64,000 bases of DNA from positions 214,481 through 278,480 of the forward strand of contig JAAOMT010000414.1 in NCBI GenBank assembly GCA_016748015.1, given 5' to 3'. The position numbers and the translations under genes were made by a program. Below the pieces are notes generated by a model. It saw nothing but the letters and a program-made list of their open reading frames with translations. It had not been told where the DNA came from and made no database searches. This DNA is from Geosiphon pyriformis uo1 (taxonomy: Eukaryota; Fungi; Glomeromycota). Below, piece after piece: positions 29,168 to 58,034 of the stretch (its first letter is position 1; the number at the start of each line of letters is the position of its first letter).

Positions 29168-30067
29168 TGTTACAGATGATTATTTGGGGTCTCAAATCAA
29201 ATAACAAATCCATAACTGGGTACTCAATATCTTAACAATACTAGTGTTATAGATATATTGGTTATATTTGAAGGTTTTTTAGAGTTGAGCCCTTTGTATA
29301 ATAAACAGAGATTCAATAATGATGTTATTGGTTGTTGAATTGTGTTCCCAATTTTTGTTTTTAGCTTGGTGGCCAGTTTATTCTGGCATTCGTGCCCTTC
29401 TAGTAAGCTATCTATTAATATATATATAATTTTACCCTTATTTCTGGGTCTTTTACCAGGCTATCTATGATGTCAATTACTCAGCACTTTAATCCTTAAT
29501 CAGTTAGTATTCAACAATAAAAATCAAAGAAAAAAAGAAATAAAAGAAAAAAAGAAAAAAATAAGCCAAGGCAATATGCAAGTTAGTATCTTGTCAATAG
29601 CCATGATTCAGAGCTATTGTTCCAGTATAGTTAAGTATCAATTACTATCAACATAAAGTGTTGATAGTAAAAAGTGGATTTGGATCGTGAATGATTTATT
29701 TATTTAATATTTGTAGATAGAAGATTTCCAACTAAAGGATTCTAATCTTTCTACTTCTAATACTACTGCTATATATACATAATTGATGTTCTATGAGATT
29801 GCTCACATTTCTGAGTGATGTGCTATGATTTCTTGAGCAATGCTCACATTGCTGAGTGATGTGCTCTTATTTTTTAATATCACTCCACATTGCTGAGTGA
29901 TGTGCCATGTTTTCTGACATTGCTTTACATTGCTGAGCAATGTGTCATGATTTTTGACATTGCTCCATATTGCTAAGCAATGTGCTCATGTGCTAAATAC
30001 TATTCTCTTATTGGTCTGCTATTTTCTGTATCTGTTTTCTTTTTATGAGTAACATTATCTTCTCCTT

Positions 30068-31571: not shown

Positions 31572-31599
31572 TTTTCTTGGTTGCTTTTGTTGCATATAC

Positions 31600-32998
31600 T
31601 GTGTCTTTATATACTTTTTTATTGTTTGATTTTACATGTTTGGTCTAATGATTATAATTGGTTCCAGATCTCATGGAATCTTATCTTGTTAAACTAGTAT
31701 TCATTGTACTTCCAATTGTGGAATGTTATTGGTGGATGATAATGTTTATCTGGTAATATAGTTTCAGTCGATCACTATGTGCTGCTTTGGCTAAAAGTTT
31801 GTTGTTCTATCTTAATTTATAAGCTCTATTTCCTAGAATTTCTTCTATGTGAAATGGTCTGTTCTATTTGGGGTCAAATTTTTCACTCCATTGTTTTTCC
31901 GCTTTGGTACGATGTAATAGTACTTTGTCTCCAATCTGGAATTCAACTGGTTTATTTGGTAGTTGGTTATTGTGTCATTTTTTTTGCTTTTCTTGTGATT
32001 TTTGGATGTTGTCAATTGCTTTTTGTCATTTGTTTTCTAGTGTTTCTATTAAGTTATATGTTTTTCTTAGCAATATTTCTTGAAAATTATCTTCAGTTAT
32101 TGGTTTTGTTAGATAAGTGTTGACTTCTATCTCAACTGGTAATGTTGCTGTTCTACCATATACCAATTCAAATAGTGTTGCTTGTGTAGTATCTTGTTTC
32201 ATTGTCCGATAAGCAAATAATACTAATGATATAAACAAATTCTATTTGTCCTGATTTTCTTGACTGATCTTGGTAATTGCTTCACACAATGTTCTGTTAA
32301 ATCTCTCAACTAATCCATTGGTTTGTGGATGATATGGTGATGATAATGGTTTTTTTATCCCAAATCTCTGACTTAATTCTGTTAATGTTCTATTCACAAA
32401 ATGAGTTTCTTGGTCTAATAGTAGTTCTTTTGGACATCCATGTCAACATATTAAATCTTGATGGACAAATTTGGCAACAGATTCTACATCTGCTCTTTGA
32501 ATGGCTTTTGCTTCTGGCCATTTTGTAAGATAGTCTATAGCTACTGTAATATATCTGTTGTCTCTGCTGGTAATTGTTAATGGTCTGACTAAGTCAATTC
32601 CAATACGATCAAATGGTTGTTCCACTTTGATTGGTTTTAATGGTTCACTTGGTCTTGTTCCTCCTCTTCTTTAACAAGCATCACAATTTTGAACATATTG
32701 GATAATGTTTGGATACATTAATGGCCAATAATATCTTTTTCTGGTTCTTTCTATGGTCGCTTCTTTATGAAAATGTCCTGCTGTTGGATCTAAATAGTAT
32801 TGTCTCTTTCTCTGGTTCTGTAATTACTCTGGTTGGTTGATCTGGATTTCTTCTGTTCTTCCGGTAAAATATATTTTAATGATTGATAAAATATTTTGAT
32901 TGTTGTTTTATGTTGTTTTGTTCTTTTTGAGATAATTTCTTCTTAAACAATTGGGTATTTATATAATATTGTAGTTGTTAGTATTTTTGTATATTCAT
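31600..32998 (-). pseudogene. A3 integrase ORF
   Basis: Own ATG at 32998. HHCC, IGIDLV, YHPQTNGLVERFNRTL and GPY/F-like tail. Confidence 0.9.
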
Positions 32999-33028
32999 CT
33001 TTTGTTATATTTTTGGATTGAAATGTTT

Positions 33029-36000: not shown

Positions 36001-38322
36001 TTCTATTCGTTTTGGTTTTCCAAAATGTTCAATAATGTATGGATGGCAGTAGAATTTTGTTACCAAAGTGTACTCCTCATTATTATCACAACAAGCACCC
36101 ATTGATGACAATTTCTTGCCACAATTGATGCATACCAGTTTTGGACAGTGATAAGTGGATTGGTGGGGTGTAGTGTAGGAATTATAAGTAGGATTGCTGT
36201 TGGTTGTTGGTTCTTCTTCCTTTCTCTTTCCTTTTCCCTTTTTGTCTTCTTTCTATTCCCAATTTATTTGTTCTTTCTGGTCATTGTTGGTTTTCCAGGC
36301 TTGGTTGGCTTTCCAGATAAGTTTTTTGCTCTGCTTTTCTTTTCTGTTGTTGTCTCACAAAAGTACTGGCAGCAGCTCATTGTGTTTGGTGTTAGCCCAG
36401 GAAACTTAGTAGGCTTTCTAAGTAGGTTTCTTTTTCTCTTCCTTGAATTCAATAAGTGGTGTTGTCGAGTTGGTGGTCTTAAAATGGCCACACATGGCTG
36501 GTACACGTGTGTGTTGACTGTTTTGGCTCAGTTGGAGCTCTTGTGTCATCCAGTCCAGTATGGCATTGGTTTTAGATAACCAATTATTTTTTACTAATGT
36601 CTGATATTGAATTGCTTCCATTACTAGGACTTTAATGGAAATAATGATGCCATTGACTTCAAAAAAGAAGTCATCAATCTTACCAATGGGAGTTTTGATT
36701 GCTCCATTGGCAGTTATAATCCTGGTGCTGGCAGCGCAATCAACTCGGTGACCTAATTGGTCCATGAGTTGTTTTGTAATGATGCTGTCAGCTGATCCAC
36801 TGTCTAGGATCAGTTTGATAGAGTGGCCATCAATTTTGGCATCAGTACACATGACAGTAATAGGTTTTTTTTCTAGAACAGCTTCACTAAATAATGGCAT
36901 GGTTGACAGTTCTTCGAGTTCAAATGGGAAGATGGTGTCCAGTGATTTGTTTTTGGTGATGGTAGCTGGCGGAATGTTGCTGGTAAGTGTTGGGTGTTGG
37001 TTGGTTTTTGGGTTATTGGATTGAGTGTCTTTTGGGGTAACCAGTAGACTTAAATAGTTCTGGAAATTTGGGTTTTGGGCATACCCAGTACCCAAATTCC
37101 ATTGTTGAGATTCTGTTGGTTGTGTGAAAGAACTGGGAATCAGTTGGTGAACTACCATTGATGATCTCCAGCTTTGTTGGGTTAATTTTGGTATTTAGGT
37201 TCTATTTTAAGGTAAGTTCTGTGGTGGTGTTTGAATTTGTTGGGGCTGATATATTACTTGAGGCTGTAGCTGATAAATGGGTTGTGGCTGCAACTAATAA
37301 ATTGCTGGTGTTATCAGTTGATAAATTGGCATTTGATATACTGGTGGTTGATAAGATAGCTGCTGTATTATAGGCAAGTAATTCTGATGATATGGCTCTG
37401 AGTTTGGTGGGTTATTCGGAATTTGAAACCAGTAATTGGGGTTTTGATATTGATTTCCTGATCATTGGTTATTTAAGCAATGGTGACAATTGATTTGTAG
37501 ATATCCTTGTTTACCACAATAATAGCAAACATGCGTTTTCTGTTGCTACTGTTAATTGGTCGATGATGATGGACATGACTGATTCTGGAAATGATTTGTG
37601 TTTCTGGAATTATTGCATCATTGTGGTGGTTGATAAATTGTGCAATTGTTAGCTAAGTATCCCTCTAATTTCTGATTGATGGAATCACTAAATTGTTTCA
37701 ATTTGGAATCCAATTCAGATGATCCATTCATTACTAGATTAACAGCTTGGGCATGGTTGGCTTCTAATTCAGCAGCTTCAAAATCTCTGGCGTTTGTGAT
37801 GGCTGCTTGCAGATCGACAGGATACATTGGATGTACACATTGTAAGATGCTGCTGTGTAATCCGCGAATAAACTGATTTAAGATCTGGGCTACTGTGAAA
37901 TAATTGGCATTGATGGCTTGGATCTGGTGCAAATTCCTGTAAAAGCATCTTAAATAAGTAGTAACTGCTTCATTTTTTCTTTGTTTGATAGTAGTGAAGG
38001 TGTTTGCTAGCCTGTTAATGCTGTTATTGTTGCTAAAGTATCTTAAAAACTCAATTTTAAATGCATTAAAATCTTGGGATTTGTTGATTAAGCTTTGATA
38101 CCATGAATTAGCGGTATTCTGGAGAAAATATGGGATGGCTTGCATGGCTCTGGCGTTATTACATCTATTAACTGCTATGACTTTTTCTATGTTGTTAAGC
38201 CATATTTGGGCATCGTCCTCTTCGCTGGTAAATTTTTCAAGTTTGACTATTGGTACATATGCTATTGGATCTAAGTTGGGTTGTAGTGGTTGTTGAAGTT
38301 GTTATTGTGGCTGTGGAAGCAG
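33029..38322 (-). pseudogene. A3 polyprotein: Gag C-part, protease (LDSG), Cys-rich block, dUTPase, dUTPase-like, RT, RNaseH
   Basis: ORF fragments starting at 38145, 37158, 36111, 35778, 35499, 33987 and 33423 are all in one frame, separated only by point stops. Confidence 0.95.
34860..35286 (-). pseudogene. dut: dUTPase domain (A3)
   Basis: TGFDL, RSS, GGIINAEY, KIAQAIF and decayed RGxxGFGS motifs within ORF 34330-35499. Confidence 0.92.
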
Positions 38323-39196
38323 TATTACAAGTGATTATTTGGGGTGTTGAATTAAATAACAAACCCATAACTTGGTGCTAAAAGTTATTCACATTGATGT
38401 TATTAATCTAAAGGTTTTGTATTTAAAGGTTTTGTATCTGAAGGTTTTGGATTAAGTTCTTTGTATAATAGACAGAGATTCAATAGTTGTTTTATCCGTA
38501 GCTTCCCAGAATTACAATTCTGTCAATTCTTCTCTTGGCATGATGGCCAGCAATTTTTTGGTAAGTATTCCATATCTTCTGTACGTGTCCTATTCTCTCG
38601 CAGGGGTCTTCTACCAGACAATCCTTGACATCAGTAATCTAGTGCTTTATTTAACCAATTAGTGCACAACAATAAAATCAAAATAAAATAAAGAAAAGAA
38701 ATAAAAGAAAATCATAAATAAGCCAAGACAATTTTACAAGTTAGTATTCCATCAATAGCTGTGATCAAGAGCTATTGTGCCAGTATGTTTAAGTATCAAT
38801 TATTATCAACATAGAGCGTTGATAGTAGAATTAAGTTTAAGATACCAAATAGTTATTTATTGTGTTTGGAAGGTTGTCTAGATCAAATCTAAACTAAGAG
38901 GTCTGTCTTTTTTAGCTTCTAATACTACTGCTATATATACATAATTGAGATTCCTTAATTTCTCAATTTTTCACAACAGGAATTCTGCAATTCCTGGAAT
39001 CCTGCAATTCCTTTGAGAGGAATCCTGGAATTCTGGAATCCTGTGATTCCTCATGAGAATTCTGTAATTTCTGGAATTCTGCAATTTCTGAGAGGATTTC
39101 TGGAATTCCATATTTTACTATGTCTACTTCTAATTGGCTAATAACTATGCTAATAGATATTCCCTATATTTCTATGAGTAACATTATTCCCTCCTT

Positions 39197-39821
39197 TTAA
39201 TATTGAGCTCTGTTGAAATCTAACTCTGTTAATTTCTCTTGAAGTATTTTCTGAATTTTATTTTTGAGAATTACTTGTTATTTGAGTCTGTAATTCTTCA
39301 AATTGAGCATTGGTGATTTTTCCTAATTGATTACTGGTAACCGTGTCCATTGCTTTGTTGAGTAAGATTTCTGGTCAATCCTGAAATGCTGTGTGTATTC
39401 GGTAAATGGCTCAGGCCTGTGTGGATAAGTTGTTCTTTCCCACAAAATGTTCTAATTGTTGTAGTATTTTGGTGTTAAATAATTGCTTTGTTTTATTCGT
39501 ATATAGATTCTGGATATTCACGTGTTGTCTCAAGTAAAAATAACAATAGTTTTTTGGAAATTGTTGTATTCATCAATTCCAAGTTTCTTTAGTCAACTCT
39601 TGGTATAGTGACTCTTTTGTCAACTCTTTTATTGCTAATTTTACTTTTGCCATGATTTTGTCAATGGTATTTTCTGTTTTTTTCTGTGTTTTATGTGGTG
39701 ATGTCTTTCTAGTGTCTTGATATCAGATGGTTTGTTGATTAATTGTAATTTCCATCTTTTGGTGTTGAATTAATTGAAAGAGTTGTTGTGCTAGTGAGTG
39801 GATGTTGTCTGTAATTTCTAT
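39197..39821 (-). pseudogene. A4 ORF3 (~208 codons)
   Basis: (M>I)EITDNIHSLAQQLFQ..NYCYFYLRQHV..A*AIYRIH..LGKITNAQFEEL. TATATAAAG lies at 39854-39862. Confidence 0.8.
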
Positions 39822-39846
39822 TTTTTTGATATTTTTTGTTGTGTTT

Positions 39847-41257
39847 ACTATGTCTTTATATATTCTTTTGATGGATTAATTAACGTGTTGTTGTCAATAA
39901 TGATGATTGGTTTCAGATCTTGTGGAATCTTCTCTGGTTGGACTAGTATCTTTTGTATTCTTAATTGTAGAATATTATTGATAGATGGTGGTGTAATGTT
40001 GTGGTATGGTTTCAATTAATCTCTATGTGCTGCTTTGGTTAAGATTTTGTTATCCAGTCTTAATTTGTAAGCTTTATTCCTTAGAATTTCTTTTATGTGA
40101 AATGGTCCATCCTATTTGGGGTCAAATTTTCTACTTCATTGTTTTTCTGCTTTGGTATAATGTAAGAGTACTTTGTCTCCAATTTTGAATTCAACTAGTT
40201 TGTCTGGTAGTTAATTATCATGTCTTTCTTTCTGTTTCTCTTGTGACTTTTGTATGTTTTTAGCTGCTCTTCTTCATTTGTTTTTCAATGTTTCCATTAA
40301 GTCATATGTTCTTTTTAACAATGTCCTGTGGAAATTTTCTTCTGTTATTGGTTCAGTTGGATATGTGTTAATCTCTATCTCAACTGGTAATGTTGCTGTT
40401 CTACCATATATTAATTCAAATAGTGTTGCTTGTGTGGTGTCTTGCTTCATTGTTCGATAAGCAAATAATACTGATGATATGAACAAATTCTATTTATTCT
40501 GGTTTTCTTGGCTGAGTTTTACTATTGTTTCACACAATGTTCTATTAAATCTTTCAACTAATTCATTGGTTTGTGGATAGTATGGTAATGATAGTGGTCT
40601 CTTAATTTCGAATATTTGGCTTAGTTCTACTAATGTTCTATTCACAAAATGGGTTCTTTGGTCTAATAATAATTCTTTTGGACATCCATGTTGACAAATC
40701 AGATCTTGATAGATGAATTTGGCAACAGATTCTGCATCCACTCTTTGAATTGCTTTGGCTTCTGGTCATTTAGTAAGATAGTCTATGGCTACTGCAATAT
40801 ATCTGTTGCCTCTGCTGGTAATTGTCAATGGTCTGACTAAATCAATTCCAATATGGTCAAATGGTTGTCCCACTTTGATTGGTTTCAATGGTTTGCTGGG
40901 TCTTGTTCCTTCTCTTCTTTGACAAGCATCACAATTTTGCACATATTGGATGATATCTGAATACATCAATGGTCAATAGTATCTCTTTCTGGATTTTTCT
41001 ATGGTTGCTTCTTTATGAAAATGTCCTGCAGCTGGATCTAAGTGCATGTTAAATAGTATTGTCTCTTTTTCTGGTTTTGTAATTACTCTGGTTGGTTGAT
41101 CTGAATCTTTTCTATTTTTCTAATAAAGTATATTTTGGTAAGTGATAAAATATTTGGATTGTTGTTTGATTCTCTTTTGTTTCAGTTGAGATAATTTCTT
41201 CTTGAACTGTTGAGTATCTATATAATGTTGAAGTTGTTGATATTTTTGTGTGTTCAT
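39847..41257 (-). pseudogene. A4 integrase ORF
   Basis: ATG at 41257. ORF fragments 40766-40969, 40490-40741 and 40274-40486. Confidence 0.92.
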
Positions 41258-41318
41258 TTTTTGTTATATTTTCGTGAGTATTGTTTTGGTTTTGTTATAT
41301 TTTTGAATTGAAATGTTC

Positions 41319-44300
41319 TTAGATTTGTCTTATTTGCGACAAACCATCAGCATTTCTGTTGTCTTTTCCCTTTTTATAATGTATGATATAAGTATATGGT
41401 GCAAGTGCCATTTTCTATCTTGACTGTCTTCCATTTCCAAATTTTTGTTTTTGGAGTGATGTTAATCCTTTGTGATCTATGTACACTTCAAACTTTAGGC
41501 TCAAGTATTTTTTCCATTTCATAACTGCCCAGTATATTGCTAAGTGTTCTTGTTCCAATGTTTTATAGTTCTTTTTGGCTGGTGTTAAGCCTCAGCTAGC
41601 AAATGCTACTGGATGTTCTCTTCCATCCGGTCCTCTCTGAGATAGTACTGCTCCCAATGCTTGACCTGATGCATCAGTAGTAATGATAAATAGTTTGTTG
41701 TAATCTGGATAGATCAATACTGGCACTTGAATGAGCTTTCCTCTTAAAATGTCAAAAGCTTTTTGTTGCGTTTCTGTCCATTCATATTTCATGTTCTTGG
41801 TTTGTAGATGGTTGAGTGGCTGAGCTATTTTAGAAAAGTTTTTGATGAAGTGACAATAATAGCTTACAAATCCCAAGAATGATTTTAGTTCAGTCACATT
41901 AGTTGGTACTGGAAAGTTCTTTACTATTTCTATCTTGTCTGGGTCTGTCTTGATACTATTTTTGCTGACTATATGTCCCAAAAACTTCAGTTCTGTTTTG
42001 CCAAAGAAGTACTTAGTAGCATTTAGCTTTAACTCTGCTCATCGCAGTCTTTTGAATACTTGTTGAAGATAATGGAGATGATCATCAAATGTTCTTGAGA
42101 ATACATTAGTGTTATCCAAGTACACAACTACTGATTTCCACAATAAGCCAGTGTACACAATTTCCATTAGCCATTGGAAGGTTGCTGAGACATTGGTTAA
42201 GCCGAATAGCATTACTTCAAATTCAAAATTCCCTTCTCTTATGGTGAATGCCATTTTCTCTTTGTTGGCTAGATCCATGGCTACTTGTCAGTAACTGCTA
42301 TCCAAGTCCAATGTTGAAAACCATTTGTTTCTACCAAAAGCATCGAATAACTCTTGGATCTGTGGAGTTGGATAACTGTTTCCATGAGTAACTTTATTGA
42401 GTTTTCTGTAGTCTACACAAAATCTGATCTTTCTATTCTTCTTTCAGATGAGTACCACTGGTGACAACCATGGGCTCATTGATGGCTAGATTAGCCTGTT
42501 GTTAAGCATTTGATTGATCTCTTAACGGATAATCTTATGGCTTGCTGGTGGTACTCTGTATGCTCTTTGTTTAATTGGCATTGCATTTCCAGTTTTGATC
42601 TGGTGTTGGATGATATCAGTTTTGCCAAATTTGTTTTCACTAGCAAAGATGTCATTAAAATTGTTGAATAACATCTTTAGTTGCATCTGTTGAAGTGGAT
42701 CTAGATTTCCTATGTTCATTTGCTCTAGCTGTTCTGGTTGTAACAAATAACATTTGTTCTGTCTATAGATTGTTTGTGACATAATATCTACATATTCACA
42801 CAATTGTGGAAAGTCTGGAATGGTACTTGGTAGTTGATCCTCAATTTCAGTGGTCAAATATCTAAGAGTGGTTTTTTTCGGTATCTCTACAATATTTCCT
42901 GTATTGTTGTAGATGGGAATTTTGATATGATTGTGGTTCTTGGCTAGTATGTATAGATTAATAAGTCCAACTTCTCCTGTTTCACAAAGGCTTGTTTCTG
43001 CTTCAAAAATTTGTGCCTGATCCTTTACCTTTCTTTCTATTGCTAACATGTACTGGTTATATGGTGGAATAGAAATTGCATGACCTGTTGAGATAATTTC
43101 TTCTTGGCCAATAATTTCTTCTTTTGCCATATTGACTGGTATGTCTATTTTACCCGTGGATCCGAATCTCTGTATTCCTTTTGCGGTTATCTCTAATTCT
43201 TCCCTATTTCCCACTGAAACTAACTGAGCTATTTTAACCAGAGGCAGAAATATTGTCTGTGCTATTTTCTCATTTGGCTCTATAATATAGGCCTTTTCAG
43301 AGTCATTTTGTAGCATGGTGATGATATTTCTTATATATCCCATGTCAATTATTCCTCCTCTTATATTTATTCCTCTTTTTGCTAGACTACTCTTAGATGC
43401 TAATTGAATTATTGTTGTTGCTGGAATTTTCAGTGCTATTTTCAAATCAATGCAGATGCGTGAATGTGGTTCTAATTAGATGGCCTTTTTTTCTGAATAC
43501 CTCAGATCAAACCCAGCATCAGTAATATGTGTGCATTCTGACATAATACCTTTATTATTATCGCTGAACCATTTAAGTTCCTGTTCCTTGGTAAGGTCAG
43601 GAAGTGCAATATATTGTTCATAGTTTGGATTGGTGTTTAAATCTGAGTTGGAATCATTGTCATTGTTTTCGCCATATTGGATGAAGCTAGAACCAGTGTT
43701 TTTGTTATCATTGTTGTCAGAGTTTGAATTGGGATTAAAAATCAATTCTGATTCTGATGCACAGCTGCTAATTGGTTTCTTTTCCTCTGGGATTGTGTAG
43801 ATCATGTGTGATGGTGGATTATAAATGAGGTCACACTCATTACAATATTGGAAGTCATATAGAATCAAACAGTAGTTACATAGTTGAATGTTTATTTCTT
43901 CCAAGCATTGTTTCTGCTTTTCTATTGTGGGCACTAATTGCTGGTAATGTTCGTGAAATTCTTCTGAGTCATTTTCAATGTTGCCAAAGACATCAGAAGT
44001 TTAGACATATTCAGATTCAGGAAGAGATAAAAGATTGTTTTTTATTTCCAGTAATTCACTGGTTGTCATGCCTTCTGCTTTTGCATATGTTATTCTCCAA
44101 AGTTTATGTTTGTCATGGGGATATCTTTCCAATTGTCATAGTGCTCTTTTCTATGCGTCATCGATTAGTGTTCTCTTGTATACCCAGTTATTTATCAAGA
44201 TGGTGTACTGATATGTCTCATCATATGTTTCTTTCCATCCAGGAATGTCATTCCACATTCCTTCATCAGGCAAGATAGTTCTACATGCAAGACATGGTTG

Positions 44301-44410
44301 ATTGTCCCACTTTTCTTGTTGTTTCGGTCATCCAAAGTGCTCTATGATGCATGCGTGACAGTAAAATCTGGTGGCCATTGAATATTTCTCATTGTTGCCA
44401 TAGCATGCGC
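41319..44410 (-). pseudogene. A4 polyprotein 3' part: Cys-rich block, dUTPase (~43153-43577), dUTPase-like, RT, RNaseH
   Basis: AGFDL, GGIIDMGY, KIAQ, FGSTG; YLDN; TDASG; NADGLS followed by TAA at 41321-41319. Confidence 0.95.
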
Positions 44411-45388
44411 TGTTACCAGACAAAATTAGAGATATTATTTAGCATAAAATTATCTTATAATTTCTATCATTAATTAGCATATATTATCATTTCAAATTAT
44501 TACTTATTACATTACAAAAATGTCCGAAATTATCATTTAATTAATAACCCAAATTGTACACAACACAAATGTAACCTAATTGCAATGATCAATCATGCAA
44601 TACCCCGAACTATGTAACATTCAAAAGTTTGCCAAAATTTATAGAAATTTGCCGAAATAATTGATAGTTCACCAAAATATCTAATAGTTTGCAGAAATAA
44701 CTTGTAGTTCACCGAAATGTATCTTTAGTTCAGTGAAATTGTAGAAAATAACAAAGTTCAAGTTCATATAATAGTGTTATGACAAGTTGTATAAAAGAAG
44801 AGCTTCTCTCTTCGAGAAAATGTATCTTATTTTAGATTTAACAATTAGAATCATCCTTTATACACAAAACAAAATAAATATCAAATAATTTGAAAAATTA
44901 AATCCTGAATTATTTCACTTTTGAAATTAACTAATTCTTATGAAACAGTTTGAAATTGATTAGCTACCAATTTCAGTAAACTGTTAATAACTCCAGGCCT
45001 GAATAGAAAACGTTTCCCTTGACAGAATTCTATTTCTTTTACATTTATTTTATTTCTTTTCTTTTCTTATTACAATCATTAGGGTAGCTTACAGATGAAA
45101 TTCCTGTAGAAGAGTTGACTTTCACAGCAAAGTAACTACACATTTTTAGTGAGCTTCCAGACGAGCAATTCCTGGGAAAGAGTTGACATTTACTACAACA
45201 TAACTACATAAAGTAACTGGCAAGAAATTGGCCATTCCATTTATAAGCCCAGCAGTTCAAATTATAGGAGATAATTTGAAGATAAATTCAGTTACTGGAG
45301 GTTCAACTACTTCCTGAAAACGTGAATTTACAGCAAATCAACAACAACAACATTCAAGAAAAGAGACCCAAAAACCTCCGGTAACATT

Positions 45389-45406
45389 TGGTGCTCTCCC
45401 ACAGAA
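45389..45406 (+). promoter_or_regulatory. Primer-binding site of B2
   Basis: TGGTGCTCTCCCACAGAA starts 2 nt after the 5' LTR and is complementary to a tRNA ending ...GGGAGAGCACCA. Confidence 0.85.
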
Positions 45407-45431
45407 ACAACACAGCAAAAACAACTTCAAA

Positions 45432-48400
45432 GTGGCAATCACACCAAACACAACAACTCTAGAGTATTACCAATCAATTTACACCCACTGCAAGCAAAGA
45501 TTCAACATTCCAGACGGAATTGAAGTTGTCAAGAAATCAGTATACCAATACATTGAAAACTGCATCAACAATTATCTTTTTGGAAATTACAATATCTCAG
45601 AAGTTAGAAGCAACCTTTACAATAATTTAGCATACTATTCACAGTTGGGAACTGAAGACCTTAATAGTAAAACACTTGCCATTTACTTTTACGAACTTAA
45701 TTTTAACATTATCAAATACTGTGAAGAAACATATCCAGTGCAGTCTCAATACACTATTGATTTTGAATCAGAAACAGAAACAAGCAACAAAGGCAAAAAC
45801 AAATTAAAGCAATATTCAAGAACCACCCCAAATACTCCAACACTACCGAAAACAACTGCCAAACATTTACAAACACTTGAACAAGGAACCAGTTCAAAAC
45901 TTCCACTTACTATTACACCTTTTTCAGCTTCACTTGCACAAGCACAAACACCTAATTCACTTTTGAATCAATTTGCAAGACCAGAAGATTTTACATCACT
46001 CAGAAGTCCCACCAGACAACAAAAACCCCTTCAAACTAGTTCCAATCTCCTTGATTTTCTAGCTGAAAATCAAAGTGAACACTCTAAGACAGTAGCAAAC
46101 GAAGAAAACAACTCTGAAATAACTGAAGAAAAATCAATAAACAGTGAAAACAAAGAAGACAAAATGACAACATACATCGCAAAAATTCTTGAATTTAATG
46201 GAGAAGACATTGAGACCAGTCCCCAAGAATGGCTCGACCAAGTTACTAAAGCTGGAGATGCAAATGGATGGAATGCTGCCAAAATATTAAGAACAATTCT
46301 CTACTTTCTCAAAGAAACAGCAGGAGAATGGTTTGAAAACCTTGCCACCCCATTCAATGATTGGAACACTTTCAAAGCAGCCTTTCTTGAACAGTTTACC
46401 GACAATAACACCTCCATTACTCTTTGCAATCATTTTCAAAATATCAAACAAGAACCCTCCAAATCCGTTATGACTTATATTGGGAAATTTAACAAACTTC
46501 TCAAACAAATTTGCCAACTCGAGACAAATGATTATTATTCCAATGCTCAAATCTTGGATCAATTTATTGCTGGTCTAAAAGATAAACTAATTAAAAAGGT
46601 TCACCCACATGTGCCAGAAGATTTAAACTCTGCCATACAGCATGTAAAAAGATACAAAATGGCCATGGAAGAGACCAATCGCACAAAACTTGTAAATTTG
46701 GCAATTGGAGAAACCAGCTTAGCAGCTGAGGAAAAAATTAACCAACTCACAAAGAAGGTTGAAAACTATTTCACCAATCAACAACAGCAACCCCAAAAAT
46801 ATCAACCACCCCAGAGACAAAATCAAAATAACTTTGCACCACTTTCCAATAACCAGCCTCAAAATTGCCATTATTGTAGAATCTCTGGCCACTGGAAAAA
46901 AGATTGCAGAAAGCTATAACGAGACCAACAAAATAGGAGTAATCAACATTACCCTCCATCACAGCAATCTTATTATCAACTATCACCACCAGCTTACTAT
47001 CCACCAAGACCACAATACCAAAATAACTATTATCAGCCCACTCCACAGCCAATCCAACAGCAATGCCAACAACTGCTCACACAACATTATCAAGTACTTG
47101 CTCAAAGACTGCTTACACAGAATCAATTCACACACAAAACTGATACCAAGTAAACAACAATAGAATCAGTTCAAACAACCAATTGGTTCCCTGAAATATC
47201 ACTCAACCAAGACCCAACCACTACCACACTCAACCCAGTTATTTAACAATGCCGGAAGAACAGGATTTTTACTATACTGCACTCTCAGAAGGTAGAGCTG
47301 CAGCACAACAACAACAAAACCCTTCTTATACTCCCACCACAATTCCACCAGCCAGAATCGCTGAAAACACTAACCTTTCAGATATATTTCCTTTTGAGTT
47401 CAAAGCAAATGAGTCACCATTTCTGCTTAGCAATGCAGCCGCCAATGAACAAAAAGCAATCACGGCCATGTACACTGAAGCCGAAGTCGAAGGAAAGACA
47501 ATTCGCTTGATCCTAGACAGTGGATCCGCCGAAAGCATTATCACCTACCAGTTAATGCAACAGTTGAAAAGAAATGTTGACTGACCAGCTTAAACAGTAA
47601 TCGTCACTGCCAATGGCATGAAAAAGACCCCAGTAGGAGAAATTGACAATTTTCCGTTCACTCTTGATAGAATCACCATTCCAGTCAAAGTTCTTGTAAT
47701 GGATGCACCCCAGTACCAAGCTCTCGTCGGAAATGATTGGCTTCAAAAAGCCAATACTAATCTGAATTGGAAAACACAAGAGTTAACAATCTCCTACCAA
47801 GGACAACACGCCCGGGTACCTGCCACTTGTAATACATTTAACAAATGCTCTGAAAAAGCCCCAGCTTTTGAATTCGAACTGGAAGAAGAAAAACCCCTCA
47901 TTGAAACATTCATGGCTCTTGGATTAACGTCCAACTGGGCTGATGAAACAGAACAAGAACATTTTACCCCACACTTTGAATCCGAAACCTCTGGATAGAA
48001 TATTCCCTATTCAAAACCTGAACTAAGGAAACAATGCCCCTATATTCCCCTTAAATGTAAGGACTGCCACAAGAAACTATCGTCAATGGGAGTCTGCATT
48101 TCACCTGAAGAAGAATATGAGAATCATACTTGTTATTACTACAAGGCTTGCCACAGAGAACGATGGGGCCATCTAATAAAAAGGAGTGAAAAATAGGACA
48201 ACACCCCTTGTTTGACTTGTGGAGATATGCTACTGGAAAAATACAATTGGATTGATGTAGCCATGAGAGGAGGAGTCTGTGATCAGATCTGCCAATATGC
48301 TTTATCAATTTCAGAAAAAGTAAAAAGAGGAACACCCTTTAATGCAGCATACAACAGTGCTCTCAACAAACTTTATCACTACTCCCATGATGCTGAGATG

Positions 48401-51048
48401 ATTTTTGACTTAGTAATGGCATTAATTAACGGAGCTACCAAAGAAAATGTTCACTAAATGAAGGAAGCAGAATACATTGAATACACCATGGAATTAGCTG
48501 GATTCAATTACAAAGATGAAGTAAAAGTCTACCACCAAATCGCAAGTTACATCTACCCAACCCAAGAAGCTCAAATTCAACGATTAGAACAAATGAACAT
48601 TAGGCTATGTGAAGAATGCATTATGCCTTGTGATGAACAGTGGTGTCCAGAATGCTACACTCTTAGTATCCTCTTGTCCAGCAAAAATGATGAGAACAAA
48701 ATTGAATTTGGAAAACCTGAAGCAACAGAAGAAATTGAAACAACACTTATCTACCTTATCGAAAATCAGCCTGCCTTACAACTTAAATACTTCAACAACA
48801 ACGGACAAGGAATAAAACCTAAAAAAGCACACAAAATTGATGCTGAATATGACCTAAGATATCCAGGCAAGGATACTCTTGTTCTCAAACCCAAATTTCT
48901 CACAAAAATCAATCTCAAAATTGCACTCAAAATCCCGCCAGGAGCAATGGTTCAAATTACCTCCCAGTCCTCTTTGGCAAGCAAAAAAATCAATGTCAGA
49001 GAAGGAATAATCAATGCTAAATATACTGGAGACATTACAGTGATGCTTCAAAATAAAACTGACAAACCATTTAAGATTGAACATGCTGAAAAAATTGCCC
49101 AAGCTATTTACCTACTCTTAATCAACATTTCAGGTTTACAACTAGTCAATCAAAGAGAACAATTAGGAAAAAGCGATAGAGAAACCCAAGATTTTGGTTC
49201 AACTGGATGATTCACAGTTCCAGTTAACATAGCTCTTAACACACGGAATAAATCCCACCAGATTCTCAGACTTCCACAACTAATTACCATCTCACCCTTT
49301 GGAGAACATCCAGAAATCTACACCTGCTCAAAGCCAACAACCACACAACAAATTTTTGAGTCCAATGAACAAGTCTGCTTAGAACATAATATTTCGATCC
49401 CAAACATTTATATTCCAGAAGGAACAAAGAAAGTCTGAGTTACTTTTTACAACTCCAATAATTACCCCATAATTTTATTAAATAATTTAGAAATTGGAGT
49501 TATTTACAGTAATATATTTCAACAAGAATTACCCCAAACAGTCCCTGATTTCTCTGAAATTATTGGACATTCAATACCAAAAATCAACCCAAATCCCAGC
49601 TCCGAAAACTACTATGTTGTCATGAAAAAACTATCTCGAATCAACATGGGACAACTTGAACCACAACAACAGACCCAGCTCAAAGAGCTAATTGCAGAAT
49701 TTGCCGATATCTTTGCTGAAAACAACAATGACTTAGGAAGAACCAATTTGGTCTAACACCAAATTTATACAGAAGATGCCAAACCAAAAAAACAACAAGC
49801 ATATCGAGTTGCTCCAGAAAGCCACCAATTCATCCGAGAAAAAGTACAACAGATGCTTAACAATGGGCTCATTCAATCCTCCATGAGTTCTTGGGCTTTA
49901 CTTGTAGTGCTAGTTAAAAAAAAAATGAGAAGATCTGATTTTGTGTTGACTATTGACAACTCAACAGTGTTACAATTGGAGACGCCTACCCCCTTTCTCA
50001 AATTAATGACATGCTGGATGCCCTTAGAAAATCCAAATACTTTTCAACACTAGATTTAGAAAGTGGTTACTGACAAGTTGCTATGGATCCCAAAGATCAC
50101 CCCAAAACAGCATTCACCACCCAAAGCGGAAATTACAAGTTTAATATAATGCCTTTCAGATTATGCAATGTACCAGCAACGTTTCAGAAATTAATAGATG
50201 TTGTGTACCAAGGACTTCTTTGGAAATCAGTAGTCATTTATCTTAACGATACTGATGTTTATTCTCCATTGTTCGAATTACACTTAAAACACCTGCGAGA
50301 AGTTTTTCAATGATTACGAAAAGCAGAACTAAAACTCAATATCAAAAAATGCTACTTTGAAAAAACAAGCCTGGCCTTCCTTGGTCATATCGTTAGTAAA
50401 GATGGAATTAAACCAGATCCTGGAAAAATCAGCATTGTCAAAAACTTCAAAACTCCTCGAAACACTACAGAACTAAGAGGATTCATAGGATTAGCATTCT
50501 ACTATCAGAAGTTTATCAAAGGATTTTCGGAAATTGCAAAACTTTTCAACCAGCTTACCACCAAAAACATTGAATACAAATAGACTACCGAACACCAAAA
50601 AGCTTTTGAAATTCTCAAGGAAAAACTGACAACAGCTCCAATTCTCATCTACCCGGATTTCAGCAACCAATTTCAACTAGCTACAGATGCTTTATATACT
50701 GCCTTTGGTGCTATCTTATCACAACTAGACGACAATAGAAATGAGCGAGTAATTGCTTATGCTAGCAGAACATTAAAACTAGCTGAGAAAAACTACCCTG
50801 CCACAGAACTAGAAACAGCAGCCATAATTTGGGCCTTACACCATTTCAACCTTTATCTCAGGCCTAAAAAATTTGATATTATCACTGATAATATTGGACT
50901 CAAATGGCTTCAAAACAAAAATACTTAGCTGAATGCAAAACAAACCTGATAAACAAGATTTCTAGCAAACTATCAATACATAGTACATCACAAACCAGGA
51001 AAACTCCACACCAATGTTGACTGTCTCTCCAGAATGAGACAAGATTAG
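45432..51048 (+). pseudogene. B2 ORF1: Gag (capsid, CCHC)-protease-Cys-rich block-dUTPase (~48781-49207)-dUTPase-like-RT-RNaseH
   Basis: 495-aa Gag ORF ending CHYCRISGHWKKDC; LDSG; AEYDL...FGSTG; YLND; ATDA; NVDCLSRMRQD followed by TAG. A few point stops and two 1-bp indels. Confidence 0.95.
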
Positions 51049-51097
51049 AAAACAAAAACCAACACTCAACTTAACCAACCAAAAGAGCCAACAAACA

Positions 51098-52483
51098 ATG
51101 AATTCAGAAAACTACAACAATCTCAAACAATATTTGGAAACATTAACAATCCCAACAGATTGGTTTCCAGATGAAAAACATCGACTACAACAACAAGCCA
51201 AACAATATTTTCTATACAACAACATTATTTATCATCGAAATTTCAAAAACCCAGACAAACCACTCAGATTAATACAAGAACAGGAAAAAGATACCATATT
51301 ATACAACATGCACTCAGATCCTTCATCAGCACACTTCGGAAAAGATAGCACCACTTAAAGAACACTAGAATACTACTTTTGGCTTCGAATGAGGAAAGAC
51401 ATTCATGAATATGTCAAATCTTGTGATAATTGTCAAAGAAAAGGAGGAACACACCCTACTGAACCATTAAATCCAATCAAAGTTGGACAACCCTTTGACC
51501 GAGTTGGTATCAATTTAGTCAGACCATTATCTATTACCACTCAAGGAAACCATTATATTGCAGTAGCTGTAGACTATCTTACTAAATGGCCCGAAGCCAG
51601 AGCCATTCAACGAGCAGATGCAAAATCAGTAGCAAATTTTATCTATGAAGACATTATTTGTAGACACGGATGTCTAATTGAACTTTTATCTGATCAGGAA
51701 ACACATTTTGTGAACAACCTAATACAAAAAATTTGCGAACGATTCAATATCAAAAGATCTCTGTCTTCACCCTACCATCCACAAACAAACGGACTTGTAG
51801 AACATTTTAACAGAATATTTTGTGAGTCATTAGCCAAAGTCTCAACTAATTTTGAGCAAGAATGGGATATCTTTATTCCATCAGTGTTACTAGCATATAG
51901 AACACTAAAACAAAATACCACAAAACACACACCATTTGATTTAACTTACGGAAGGACAGCAATACTACCAATTAAGTTCACAATGGAAACATATCCAGCA
52001 CAACCAATCAATAAAAACAATTTTCAGGAAACACTTCAACGAAGAGCTTACACTCTGCTTAGCACATTGGAAGGAAAACGACGAATAGCAGCCACTTATA
52101 TTGAAAACTCCCAAGCTCAACAAAAAGAATGGCATGATGACAAATTGTCTCCAGTCACCAATAAATTTAAAATTGGAAACAAAGTTCTCTTACACAGAAC
52201 TAAAGCTAAAAAACAATGGAGTGGGAAATTTGAAAATAAATAAGATGGACTATTTTTTATCCATAAAGTTTTAGGCAACGGATCATACAAGCTAAGACTT
52301 GATGACAAAATTCTAGCAAAAGTTGCACATAAAGATCATTTGAAACACTATAATTCCAGAAACAATCCTGAACCATTAATTCCACAAATTGGTACACATT
52401 CCCCTTTAATCAATCCCGAAGACATTTCCCAAAATTTAGAACCAGTAGTTGTTATTAAACAGCCTCCCAACTTGAACACTTAA
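51098..52483 (+). pseudogene. B2 ORF2: integrase
   Basis: ATG at 51098 in a different frame from RNaseH. H..H..CDNC, SDQETHF, TNGLVE, GPY/F module. No chromodomain seen. Confidence 0.95.
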
Positions 52484-52605
52484 TTTAAATTTATTATTAT
52501 AGTTATCTTCTTATAATTTAGAAACAATCTCACAAAAACAAAACAAAAATAACATAAAAACCCATGCACCAAAAAATAATTTTCTTTTATTTCAAATTGC
52601 TTATA

Positions 52606-52954
52606 ATGACTATTCCTTAAAACATTCAACAATTATCTCAAAAACTAATGTTAGCTTTAAAAACAATATCTGAATTATCCATTACTGTTACTGGAAACCA
52701 TATTAATTATACCCAAACAGAAGTAGTTACAAATTTAGCCCCAAATTCACGAAAATATCACCTGTATNNNNNNNNNNNNNNNNNNNNNNNNNNNNNNNNN
52801 NNNNNNNNNNNNNNNNNNNNNNNNNNNNNNNNNNNNNNNNNNNNNNNNNNNNNNNNNNNNNNNNNNNNNNNNNNNNNNNNNNNNNNNNNNNNNNTTTGGA
52901 TTATTATCTGGAAATAACAAACAGTACTTGGACTTCGACGGAGCTCAGTCTTGA
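52606..52954 (+). pseudogene. B2 ORF3 (middle lost in assembly gap)
   Basis: MTIP*NIQQLSQKL..LSITVTGNHINY aligns with the family A ORF3 N-terminus. Ends ..DFDGAQS*. Confidence 0.7.
52768..52894. other. Assembly gap (127 N)
   Basis: Run of N. Confidence 1.
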
Positions 52955-52962
52955 GGAGAAGG
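52953..52962 (+). promoter_or_regulatory. Polypurine tract of B2
   Basis: GAGGAGAAGG ends 3 nt before the 3' LTR. Confidence 0.85.
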
Positions 52963-53941
52963 TTATGTTACCAGACAAAATTAGAGATATTATTTAGCAT
53001 AAAATTATCTTATAATTTCTATCATTAATTAGCATATATTATTGTTTCAAATTATCACTTATTACATTAGCAAAAATGTCTGAAATTATCATTTAATTAA
53101 TAATCCAAATTGTACACAACACAAATGTAACCTAATTGCAATGATCAATCATGCAATACCCTGAACTATGTAACATTCAAAAGTTCGCTGAAATTTATAG
53201 AAATTTGCCGAAATAATTGATAGTTCACCGAAATATCTAATAGTTTGCAGAAATAACTTGTAGTTCGCCAAAATGTATTTTTAGTTCAGCGAAATTGTAG
53301 AAAATAACAAAGTTCAAGTTCATATAATAGTGTTACGACAAGTTGTATAAAAGAAGAGCTTTTCTCTTTGAGAAAATGTATCTTACTTTAGATTTAACAA
53401 TTAGAATCATCCTTTAAACACAAAACAAAATAAATATCAAATAATTCGAAAAATCAAATCCTGAATTATTTCACTTTTGAAATTAACTAATTCTTATGAA
53501 ACAGTTTGAAATTGATTAGCTACCAATTTCAGTAAACTGTTAGTGACTCCAGGCCTGGATAGAAAACATTTCCCTTGACAGAATTCTATTTTTTTTACAT
53601 TTATTTTATTTCTTTTCTTTTCTTATTACAATTATTAAGGTAGCCTACAGACGAGATTCCTGTAGAAGAGTTGACTTTCACAGCAAAGTAACTACACATT
53701 TTAGTGAGTTTCCAGACGAGCAATTTCTGGGAAAGAGTTGATGTTTACTACAACATAACTACATAAAATAACTGGCAAGGAATTGGTCATTCTACTTATA
53801 AGCCCAACAGTTCAAATTATAGGAGATAATTTGAAGATAAATTCAGTTACTGGAGGTTCAACTACTTCCTGAAAACGTGAATTTACAGCAAATTAACAAC
53901 AACAACATTTAAGAAAAGAGACCCAAAAACCTTCAGTAACA

Positions 53942-56900
53942 GCGCCCATTAATGACAATTTCTTACCACAATTGACACATATTAGCTTTGGTCGACAATA
54001 ATTAGTTGGTGGTAATGCATAGGTGTGTGAGTTATGAGCAATAGTGTCGGTGAGTATTGTTTCTTCTTCCTTCTCTTTTCTCTTCCCTTTATTGCTTTCT
54101 TTGTTTTCTTCCTATTCCCAGCTCGATATCAGTTCATTATTATTGGTCCAAGTCAGGTTATCTGTTTTTTAGGTAAGTTCTGCTCTTTGTTTTTTTTTCC
54201 CATTGTCATTGTTATTCCAAGAAAGTATTGGCGGCAGTTCGTTGTGGTCGACATCAGCCCATGATACTTGATATGCTTCCCATGTTGGTTTGTTTTCTTC
54301 CTCCTTAAATTTGATAAACAGTGTTGTTGTCCTGACATTGCTGGGTTTGAAATGGCCACATATTGCTGGGACTTGTGTGTGTTGGCCATTTTGGCTGAGT
54401 TGAAGTTCTTGGGTGGTCCAATTGAGCATTGCATTGGTTTTGAATAACCAATTGTTGTCAACAAGTGCTTGATACTGAGTGGCTTTCATCATTAGAACTT
54501 TGATGGGTATTGTGATGCCATTAACTTTGATGGTGAAGTCATCTATTTTGCTGATTGGAATTTTGGTAGCTCCATCAGCAGTGATAATTCTTGCACTAGC
54601 AGCACAATTAACTCGGTGACCTAATTGGTCCATGAGTTGTCTTGTAATGATACTGCCAGTTGATCCACTATCTAGGATCAATTTGATGGGGTGCCCATCA
54701 ACTTTCGCATCAGTATACATTGCAGTGATGAGTTTTTCCTCAAGTGCTGCTTCACTGAATAATGGCATATCTGATGGTTCCTCGAGTTTGAATGGAAAGA
54801 TGACATCCAAAAATTCATTTTTGGTGATTGTAGCAGATGGGATATTATTGGTAGGTGGTTGTTGTTGTTCAATTCCCTGATTGCTGGAGGTGGCATCTTC
54901 TGGAGTCACCAAAAGGCTTAAATAGTGTTGGGAATTCAGGTTTTGGGTGGGACTGGTGCCCAAATTCCACTGACAAGATCCTGATTATTGGTGGGAAGAG
55001 CTGGGGATTGGTTGATGTACAACCATTGCCAATCTCCAGTTTTGGGTGATTCTCAATCTTGGGTTCCCTGATGTTATTTGAGCTGGGTTTGCTGGTGGTG
55101 TTTGAATGGTGGGTGTTTGATAGATTGCTGGTGGCTGTGGTTAATATATTACTTGTGGTTGTGTCTGATAAATTGCTTGTAGTGGTGGTTGATAAACTGG
55201 AATTTGATAAACTGGCAGTTGATAAATTGGTTGGTGCATCATAGGCAGGTAAGTGGGTTGGTATTGGTCTTAATTTGGGTGATGATTTGGAGTCTGGAAC
55301 CAGTGATTGGGGTTTCTATATTGATTTTCTAATTGTGGATTGCTATAAATATGGCAGTTGGCTCTGATGTGCCCTTGTTTACCACAGTTGTGGCAGATGT
55401 GCATCTCTGATTGTCATGACTGATTGGATGACAACAATGAACATAACTGATTTTGGAAACAATTTGCATTTCCTTAATTGTTACACCATTGAAGAAATTG
55501 ATAAATCGTGTGATTGTTAGCTAAGTATCTCTAATTTCTGATTAATTGAATCACTGAATTGCTTCAATTTGGAATCCAATTTAGATAATTCATTTATTGC
55601 TAGATTAATGACTTGGGCATGGTTGGCTTTTAATTCAGCAGCTTCAAAATCTTTGGCATATGTGACTGCAGTTGAAAAGTCCATTGGATGTATTGGACAT
55701 ACTCGTTGTAGGATGCTACTGCACAATCCTTTAATAAATTGATTTAAAATCTGTGGTGCTGTGAAATAGTCAGCTTGGATGGCTTGTATTTGGTGTAGAT
55801 TTCTATGGAAGCATTCCAAGTAGATAGTGATTGTTTCAGTGTCTCCTTATCTGATCATTGTAAAGGTGTTGACTAATTTGTTGATACTATTATTGTTGCT
55901 AAAGTACCACAAGAATTCAGTTTTGAATCCATTAAAATTTTGGGGTTTGACAGTGAGGCTTTGATACCATGCATCAGCAATATCTTGAAGAAAATAAGGG
56001 ATCACTTGCATCATTCTAGCATTATTTCAATTATTGGCTGTAATGGCTTTGGCCACGTTATTTAACCAGACTTGGGCATCGTTTTCTTCACTATTGAATT
56101 TGTCAAGTTTTGTGATGGATGCGTAAGCCATTTGTTGTTGCTATGGTGATGGAAGTTGTTATTGTTGTTAAGATGGTACTGGTGGCGGTTGTTGATTTTG
56201 TTGGTTCTGTGGTTGGATGGGCTGGCCAATTGGTTCAATGGGTGGTTGATTGATGACAATAACTGGAGATAAGTATTGATTAATTACTTTGGAATTTGGA
56301 TTGTTCTGATTTGGTGGTGTTTGAATATTCAGAGTGTCATTTTCCTGATTGTCTAAATTTGGCTGGGTTTGAAAGTTCAGAGTTTTACTTTCTGGATTTT
56401 CTAGAATTGGGTTTTGGTAAGTAAATTTGTGATTTTCAGATTCTTTTTCCTTTTCTACTTCTTGTCCTCTTTCCAATTTAGTAATTTCTTATGAACTCAT
56501 GGTTCCAAAATTCAGTTGAGGTGGCGGTGATCAAAATTCTGATGGCGTCAGCAATTGAGATTTAAATTCTTCAAAATACTTGCCATATGGTCCTAGTAAA
56601 TCTTCTTTCCTTTGTTTAGTTTGAAATCGGAAACATTCAAATGTTAATGTCATATTTGATGTAGATGCATCTGTTAATGATATATTGATGGCACTTCTAG
56701 GGGTATAGTGGTAGAATGGGTTGTTTGGTGACTTAACTCTAGTTTTCTTTCAAGTGGGTGGTTGTATTCTTTGAGGTATTACTGCTGGTATTTGTAGTTT
56801 TCTTTTGCCTTTATTTGTGTAAGTAATTGGGTATCTTTGCTGTGTGTGATGTTTAATTTTTTTGTTGATCTTAATGATGATGGATGCAAAATTATGATTT

Positions 56901-57127
56901 GTGGATAGGCTGGTGTTTTGAATTAATTCGTTGTAAAAAGTTTCTTTCGTTGATTCAATATTCACAGATGTTCCCAACAGATAAACAATCTTTTCATTGA
57001 TGTAGAAATTGAAAGCTGATTCTGCTGATATGTAATTATGGGTTAATCCCAAATGTTGACAGTAATGTTGAAATAAGAATTTCGTGAATCTTAGATGGTT
57101 TGCTCCAACATTTTCTGATTCTGCCAC
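53942..57127 (-). pseudogene. A4 polyprotein 5' part: Gag and protease
   Basis: ORFs 56750-57127, 56168-56476, 55517-55819 and 54169-54963 (LDSGSTG). Knuckle CHNCGKQGHIRANC near 55350-55397. Confidence 0.95.
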
Positions 57128-58034
57128 TTTTGGATGGGGTTATTGGTGCTGGTTCTCTGTAGGATTATATCTCACAGGGAGCACCAAATGTTATGAGTAA
57201 TTATTTGGAGTGTTGAATCAAATAACAAACCCATAACTTGGTGCTAAAAGTTATTTACATTGATGTTATTAATCTGAAGGTTTTGTATCTGAAGGTTTTG
57301 GATTGAGTTCTTTATATAATAGACAGAGATTCAATAGTTGTTTTATCTGTAGCTTCCCAGAATTGCAATTTTGTCAATTTTTCTCTTGGCGTGATAGCTG
57401 GCAATCCTCTGGTAAGTATTCCGTATCTTCTGTATGTATTCTACTCTCTCGCAGGGGTCTTTTACCAGGCAATCCTTAACATCAGTAATTTAGTGCTTTA
57501 TTTAACCAATTAGTGCACAACAATAAAATCAAAATAAAATAAAGAAAAGAAATAAAAGAAAATCATAAATAAGCCAAGGTGATTTTGCAAGTTAGTATCC
57601 CATCAATAGCCGTGATCAAGATCTATTGTTCTAGTGTGTTTAAGTATCAATTACTATCAACATGGAGTGTTAATAGTGGAATTAGATTTGAGATACCAAA
57701 TAGTTATTTATTGTGTTTAGAAGGTTGTCTAGATCAAATCTAAACTGAGAGGTCTGCCTTTTTCAGCTTCTAATACTACTGCTATATATACATAATTAAG
57801 ATTCCTCAATTTCTCAATTCTTTACAACAGAAATCTTGAAATTCCTGAAATCCTGCAATTCCTTTGAGAGGAATCCTGGAATTCTGGAATCCTACGATTC
57901 CTTGTAAGAATCCTGTAATTCTTGGAATTCTGCAATTCCTGAGAGGAATTCTGGAATTCCATATTTTACTACGTCTACTTCTGATTGGCTAATAACTATG
58001 CTAATATATATTCCCTATATTTCTATAAGTAATA

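Follow-up and report, generated by a model that had tools for sequence, protein, structure and literature searches.

Retroviruses and long terminal repeat (LTR) retrotransposons normally have their integrase delivered to the particle within Pol. Among the Ty3/Gypsy elements (Metaviridae) the integrase usually lies within the pol polyprotein (PMC5408684; here and below, citations stand for the accessible parts of the papers), and in a survey of fungi most full-length Ty3/Gypsy elements were made up of either one fused open reading frame (ORF) or two, gag and pol. The element B2, located at positions 44411-53941 of a 64-kb stretch of the Geosiphon pyriformis uo1 genome (contig JAAOMT010000414.1, positions 214,481 to 278,480; hereafter the window), is a decayed Ty3/Gypsy LTR element that has been killed by mutation. 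Like the canonical single-ORF DGLT-A and fungal Ylt1-like elements, it has LTRs, a primer-binding site (PBS), a polypurine tract (PPT), the order Gag-protease-reverse transcriptase (RT)-ribonuclease H (RNase H)-integrase and one Gag-Pol frame, and the Ylt1-like elements and the B2 lineage are alike in having no chromodomain (PMC2864245, PMC5911963); unlike in these elements, the integrase of the B2 lineage is an ORF of its own with its own methionine, and a conserved third gene is present. PosPlaTy3-5 of Postia placenta and elements of Phanerochaete chrysosporium and Tuber melanosporum share with B2 a dUTPase between protease and RT (PMC2864245, PMC6431247), whereas their descriptions, as far as accessible, report no separate integrase, and B2 adds a Cys-rich block before the dUTPase. 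The LTR elements of bdelloid rotifers likewise combine a dUTPase with a non-env ORF3 (GDSL, DEDDy), but keep the integrase in pol, and the ORF3s there encode already known enzymes or membrane proteins (PMC5408684). The B2 lineage forms a clade with a common layout, in which a stop follows RNase H, the integrase starts at a conserved methionine in a Kozak context and ORF3 is conserved. It can be proposed with moderate confidence that the lineage has three genes, encoding Gag-protease-RT-RNase H, a stand-alone integrase and a small, predicted helical ORF3 protein, with the integrase likely made by restart of translation after the RNase H stop. No description of a layout with a separate integrase and ORF3 was found in the full-text literature; Repbase, GyDB and most subscription papers lay outside the search, so the layout may already be catalogued.

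The part of B2 that bears most directly on this proposal comprises the following features:

49601..51048, forward strand: RT and RNase H, ending at the TAG at 51046-51048, with nine in-frame decay stops
51049..51097, forward strand: A/C-rich spacer of 49 nt without ATG
51098..52483, forward strand: ORF2, the stand-alone integrase with its ATG at 51098, containing HHCC, core and an SH3-like GPF part, with two decay stops
52606..52997, forward strand: ORF3, a predicted helical accessory protein, its middle hidden by an N run at 52768-52894

The integrase frame of B2 differs from that of RNase H, and a stop directly after RNase H is common to B2 and to copies A1, A2, A3 and C, which represent two further element families in the window (A and C, B2 belonging to family B). 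A2 and A3 keep the integrase ATG, which has decayed in A1 and C. The stop and the separate integrase ORF, which the original prediction had reported, are thus seen in B2, A2 and A3, and they recur lineage-wide in the relatives; since a stop in a decayed copy is weak proof, intact relatives were examined.

First, a search with RT-RNase H, for which proteins of 652-2000 residues including fused forms were eligible, listed 120 matches, of which 63 are fused to an integrase, 36 end within 30 residues past RNase H, 17 carry a non-integrase tail and 4 are spliced models. Among the best 30 matches, 29, Rhizophagus clarus included, have no integrase and end 0-27 residues past RNase H (27 of the 29 within 8 residues), and the remaining one is a plant protein at 39%; the nearest fused relatives, at 44-49%, are Gypsy-type proteins, in a comparison made without named GyDB or Repbase references. 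Next, the integrase search covered proteins of 264-840 residues and hence no fused forms. Nearly all of the 120 matches listed are 390-453 residues long, 101 of them start 60-79 residues ahead of the first His of HHCC (71 in B2), and they include Rhizophagus irregularis proteins annotated as integrase or transposase; P0140 and P0159 are intact integrases of the stand-alone type from that species. Finally, metagenome loci were fetched by integrase alignment, and among the best 80 of 569 all 52 that contain both RNase H and integrase have a stop ahead of the integrase, none being fused. At the integrase ATG, position -3 is a purine in 54 of 59 cases and position +4 a G in 46 of 59; conservation of the methionine and of its Kozak context speaks for an initiation event of its own, as the original prediction had supposed for all three proteins. 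In an RT tree of 80 rows, the 53 integrase-less or split rows, four window copies included, form one branch with a value of 92 in the Shimodaira-Hasegawa-like approximate likelihood ratio test (SH-aLRT), the split/fused label changes 2 times as against 21.5 when shuffled, and FastTree on all 124 rows gives the same grouping. The separate integrase is therefore a trait of a fungal Ty3/Gypsy clade and not a product of decay.

Ginger-type DNA transposons have a stand-alone Gypsy-like integrase, without RT, between terminal inverted repeats. Such an identity was rejected, as RNase H lies directly upstream of the integrase in 52 of the 80 loci and in the window, and LTRs flank B2.

ORF3 is present in A1, A1b, A2, A3, B1, B2 and C. 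In the relatives, a sense ORF of at least 100 residues occurs in 30 of the 40 loci with at least 700 nt beyond the integrase, compared with 3 antisense and 0.17 shuffled, and one family covers 32 of the 40 collected ORF3s. With this family, and with no fusion among the 52 loci, the lineage does not present the single continuous pol frame without a conserved ORF3 that the original prediction had named as the outcome contrary to it. In hhalign comparisons the ORF3s of families A and B match each other at 97% and the intact metagenome proteins P0320/P0342 at 99%, and the wide metagenome ORF3 family is matched by P0320/P0342 at 92% and by family B at 91%, with reversed controls at or below 1.2%. 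With the A4 profile by itself, none of the ORF3s in the window is found at a domain E-value of 0.01, the link being remote. Two ORF3 models, with predicted local distance difference test (pLDDT) scores of 89 and 96, show the same order of seven helices, the underlying alignments sharing members. An env glycoprotein was rejected, as a hydrophobic segment above 1.32 is absent in 36 of 37 ORF3 proteins and the models are soluble and helical. ORF3 is thus predicted to be a conserved helical protein other than env, homologous between families A and B.

No significant match to ORF3 was obtained in Pfam, PHROGs, PDB sequences (the best being a designed protein), Foldseek against PDB, or BFVD, nor in a wide VIA-align run on the models, with best Z scores of 4.7 and 5.2; this absence does not prove a new fold. 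The similarities to the helix-turn-helix proteins KorB (1r71; Z 3.5, root-mean-square deviation 4.4, 89 aligned residues) and ParB (6s6h; Z 3.3) are both within background, as is DUF1016_N, found in 1 of 37 ORF3s at an E-value of 0.037. Several basic positions are conserved, one of them being lysine or arginine in 25 of 27 sequences. ORF3 may, with slightly less than an even chance, be a nucleic-acid-binding helper and not an envelope protein. ORF3 ends at the PPT in family A, as the original prediction stated for all families, but in family B it passes through the PPT and stops at 52995-52997, 32 nt within the 3′ LTR. B2, put forward as the best copy, is a poor one for ORF3, of which only 54 + 33 codons are visible, the N run hiding about 152 of about 239 codons when the family-B protein P0277 is taken as the yardstick.

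The junctions between RNase H and integrase range in length from -20 to 943 nt (n=50) and fall in frames 0, 1 and 2 in 11, 19 and 20 cases; being variable in length and in all three frames, they rule out read-through or a single frameshift. Stop and start overlap in 14 of the 50, including ATGA (-4, four loci), TAATG (-1, two loci) and -8 (four loci), and overlaps of -4 and -8 are likewise found at integrase-ORF3 junctions. ATGA and TAATG are forms listed for termination-reinitiation (PMC5972666). No ATG is present in 26 of 33 spacers, with 20 ATGs seen in total and 45 expected. Reinitiation is favoured because of the Kozak context of the ATG, the lack of a fixed acceptor, the ATG-free spacers and the ATGA/TAATG overlaps, and judging from these junctions the chances that the integrase is made by termination-reinitiation appear roughly even. 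Victoriviruses, SART1 and LINE-1 similarly have AUGA/UAAUG overlaps or a short spacer between long ORFs, and LINE-1 has been proposed to reinitiate across its 63-nt spacer (PMC5972666); these are, however, double-stranded RNA viruses or non-LTR elements, and in the present clade reinitiation is proposed from the junctions. In such a mechanism, ORF1 would terminate on the full-length RNA while a share of the ribosomes stays bound, and the retained ribosomes would restart at an overlapping AUG or scan a short AUG-poor spacer, such as the 49 nt in B2. ORF3 would be reached likewise by reinitiation, or from a shorter RNA, and the integrase would need to enter the particle without a tether to Gag-Pol.

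A number of points weigh against the three-gene reading with reinitiation. The metagenome loci were retrieved with patterns from split-type integrases and so sample this clade, the 80-row RT tree leaves out six integrase-less rows (nested among fused rows or distant) and 38 of the 63 fused rows, the SH-aLRT value of 92 is below the 95 mark of the tool, and the split rows P0053 and P0069 are placed among fused rows. Of the 50 junctions, 34 are at least 15 nt long, which is beyond the proximity required for viral reinitiation (PMC5972666); three long spacers contain 2-7 ATGs, a better fit to an internal promoter, and AUG-poor spacers with a Kozak context suit a subgenomic mRNA equally. The ORF3 of family A matches the wide metagenome family at only 63% in hhalign. 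The homology of the third ORF of family C to the ORF3 of A or B is unproven (hhalign below 1%), so that, of an ORF3 claimed to be shared by A, B and C, the part concerning A and B stands and that concerning C is not supported. The suggested nucleic-acid binding of ORF3 is deduced from the conserved basic residues alone.

Because many spacers are long, the main rival explanation is that integrase and ORF3 come from shorter RNAs, whose internal promoters would lie in RNase H or the spacer, with ORF3 possibly a promoter activator. Spacers of up to 943 nt, the free frame and the strong Kozak context would all suit such RNAs, as would the AACGG-type words seen by inspection to recur in some spacers and the TATA-like words ahead of several ORF3 starts, but the exact or near stop-start overlaps in 14 of the 50 junctions would make little sense if transcription alone separated the genes, and a TATA-like word is found no farther than 60 nt from the integrase ATG in just 8 of 59 cases, which leaves this explanation possible but rather unlikely. 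Production of the integrase from a spliced RNA, or its splicing back onto Pol, is improbable. While expression from spliced messages is typical for the ORF3s of LTR elements (PMC5408684) and a predicted intron links RNase H with integrase in four gene models of Rhizophagus clarus, these models trim the conserved end of RNase H, as a predictor evading the stop would, and no fixed acceptor is apparent, with YAG present in 11 of 48 cases at the motif that ends RNase H and YAGs scattered ahead of the ATG; the conserved methionine and Kozak context further speak against re-fusion. That an ordinary single Pol acquired the stop by decay or through misassembly, with ORF3 arising by chance, can be dismissed despite the 20 in-frame stops, two frame breaks and N gap of B2, as undecayed relatives show the same stop, start and ORF3 with 0 of 52 loci fused, and spacer length and frame vary such that neither read-through nor one frameshift joins the ORFs.

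Some junctions have features of their own. A conserved RNA structure of 36 nt, located mostly 0-20 nt upstream of the integrase ATG, is found in 17 of the 80 loci; 98% of cells pair in 16 aligned copies and 7 of 11 pairs have changes on both sides, alignment and structure being manual. It has no Rfam match in the six loci scanned and is absent from the spacers in the window. In another subgroup, AACGG words recur ahead of the integrase ATG in the spacers of L002, L003, L005, L008, L010 and L074, together with a TTTTGATTTAAC-like stretch. Upstream in Pol, of seven loci where a stop separates protease from RT, five have a single in-frame TGA followed by CTA, which is presumably a leaky-stop signal, and one subgroup thus likely uses read-through between protease and RT. 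The positions are:

L019:5194-5229, L060:4465-4500, L045:21-56 and 14 more loci: 36-nt RNA structure
L009:2498, L031:3290, L037:902, L071:1955, L078:780: TGA-CTA stop in the protease-RT interval

Foamy viruses (Spumaretrovirinae) make their whole Pol, including integrase, separately from a spliced RNA and possess env. Both they and the B2 lineage make a replication enzyme apart from Gag and carry one or more accessory genes near the 3′ LTR, whereas here RT stays with Gag and only the integrase is apart; with no env and no second RNase H, the foamy-virus likeness drawn by the original prediction is loose. A Pfam Spuma_A9PTase match (P0002, residues 827-890) was rejected as a sign of kinship, as it overlies the RT N-terminus and recurs in relatives. 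A dUTPase review names betaretroviruses, non-primate lentiviruses and ERV-L-type elements, with the word 'foamy' solely in a reference title of its accessible text. A separate integrase in Odin- or lokiretroviruses was not borne out, the word 'separate' occurring 0 times in the accessible text of PMC9040795.

The B2 lineage is a real clade-wide variant of the Ty3/Gypsy organisation whose accessory gene encodes a protein of no recognised fold, and B2 is an imperfect witness to it. A clade that makes its integrase separately must set the amount of integrase and package it otherwise, and it offers many natural stop-start junctions for studies of reinitiation in fungi, while ORF3 represents a conserved family of proteins for which the model is confident and no structural counterpart was found. 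LTR elements account for up to 41% of the DNA in mycorrhizal genomes (PMC11952901), and the present elements are likely mis-annotated there, because stand-alone integrases are labelled transposases and gene predictors splice across the stop. A bolder and only tentative view would be that an unnamed, abundant fungal LTR clade has turned Pol polycistronic, with the integrase and a new-fold accessory protein made by reinitiation (guided in one subgroup by the 36-nt structure). The integrase would then be packaged in trans, ORF3 would serve as a dedicated regulator, and the elements would be the first retrotransposons of the 'complex' type from mycorrhizal fungi.

The remaining features of B2 are as follows:

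44407..44410 (left) and 53942..53945 (right), forward strand: target-site duplication GCGC
44411..45386, forward strand: 5′ LTR of 976 bp, TG..CA, with a TATA-like box at 44790 and AATAAA at 44873
45318..47150, forward strand: Gag part of ORF1, with capsid at about 46302-46667, CCHC at 46863-46913 and one in-frame stop
45389..45404, forward strand: PBS-like sequence starting with TGG
47477..47746, forward strand: aspartic protease (LDSG), by Pfam
48023..48700, forward strand: Cys-rich insert with CxxC motifs
48818..49207, forward strand: dUTPase domain (Pfam E-value 8e-16)
49208..49600, forward strand: spacer preceding RT, earlier called 'dUTPase-like'
52953..52962, forward strand: PPT
52966..53941, forward strand: 3′ LTR

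B2 thus has the Ty3/Gypsy (Metaviridae) hallmarks of direct TG..CA LTRs, PBS, PPT, a short target duplication, a Ty3-type capsid with CCHC, and protease-RT-RNase H-integrase, whereas its integrase is outside the pol polyprotein usual for Metaviridae. The Pfam order is Gag capsid, zinc knuckle, protease, dUTPase, RT, RNase H and integrase, the families matched being PF03732, PF19259, PF00098, PF13650, PF00078, PF17917, PF17921 and PF00665. Pfam finds no chromodomain in the B2 integrase, and PF00385 is in none of the 120 integrase matches listed. The LTR pair is 95.2% identical, with 45 of 975 positions differing, 44 of them by transitions. The Gag frame begins within the 5′ LTR and passes through the PBS, in agreement with Geosiphon gene models, and no in-frame ATG for it was located at 45200-45400 on the forward strand. 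The break between Gag and protease near 47133 is a 1-nt indel specific to B2, and a second break lies in an A-run of RT near 49925; the total damage amounts to 20 in-frame stops, two frame breaks and one N gap. Gag and protease share one frame in A2, A3 and the N-terminal part of B1. ORF1 is therefore one Gag-Pol frame, as predicted, since the break is specific to B2 and A2 and A3 are uninterrupted. The 4-bp GCGC duplication of B2 lies in a CpG-poor genome, and the duplications of other copies are too decayed for comparison.

The dUTPase is real but patchy in the lineage, being found in 3 of the 120 RT relatives listed and in none of the 19 loci showing both protease and RT, and so does not qualify as the lineage trait it had been taken for; nor is it a novelty, a dUTPase between protease and RT having been described in the Postia, Phanerochaete and Tuber elements (PMC2864245). 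The proposed second, 'dUTPase-like' domain at 49208..49600 was set aside as unproven, with no Pfam match and an hhalign probability of 0.5-1.3% against a dUTPase alignment. The Cys-rich block is common to families A and B and has conserved CxxC motifs and no Pfam family; its homologues, in the best 120 of 255, are all Geosiphon pyriformis gene models with 57-88% identity. The dUTPase and the Cys-rich block are local cargo in the protease-RT interval, and the dUTPase would bar uracil from complementary DNA by analogy with lentiviruses. Long Cys-rich inserts with extra zinc knuckles also occur between protease and RT at L012:4836-6413 and L039:1257-2777; their kinship to the B2 block was rejected as not significant (hhalign 1.5%). 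In P0085, P0096-P0100 and P0113, several of them from Rhizophagus irregularis, RNase H is followed by a P-loop domain that closes Pol and matches thymidylate/deoxynucleoside kinases weakly, below the Pfam cut-off. The third ORF of L018 is a NUDIX hydrolase (E-value 1e-10) and that of L027 has a weak helix-turn-helix match. Judging from such domains, the clade seems to acquire cargo that handles nucleotides.

The window consists of nested LTR elements, is rich in AT and depleted of CpG (observed/expected 0.21), and yields no transfer RNA with ARAGORN. B2, flanked by the GCGC duplication, sits in the interval that separates the protease of the family A copy A3 from the Cys-rich region of that copy. 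The neighbouring copies are:

38325..58032, reverse strand: family A copy A3, host of the B2 insertion, with LTRs at 57189-58032 and 38325-39181
41257, reverse strand: integrase ATG of A3; about 39830-39195, reverse strand: ORF3 of A3
29168..38250, reverse strand: family A copy A2, with the integrase ATG at 32998 and an insertion of about 1 kb interrupting ORF3
22605..29167, reverse strand: two partial copies of family A, A1 and A1b, whose ORF3s lie at 24114-23476 and 28699-28061
19172..22606, reverse strand: family C remnant, with the RT end, RNase H with its stop, integrase, the third ORF of unproven homology and an LTR
9097..14862, reverse strand: family B copy B1, with an internal deletion, retaining Gag, protease, the Cys-rich part and the 3′ part of ORF3

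The insertion of about 1 kb that splits the ORF3 of A2 (30500-31450, reverse strand) appears LTR-like by eye, and a tandem array of about 10 copies of a 61-62 bp unit with 87% matches lies at positions 71-710 of the window.

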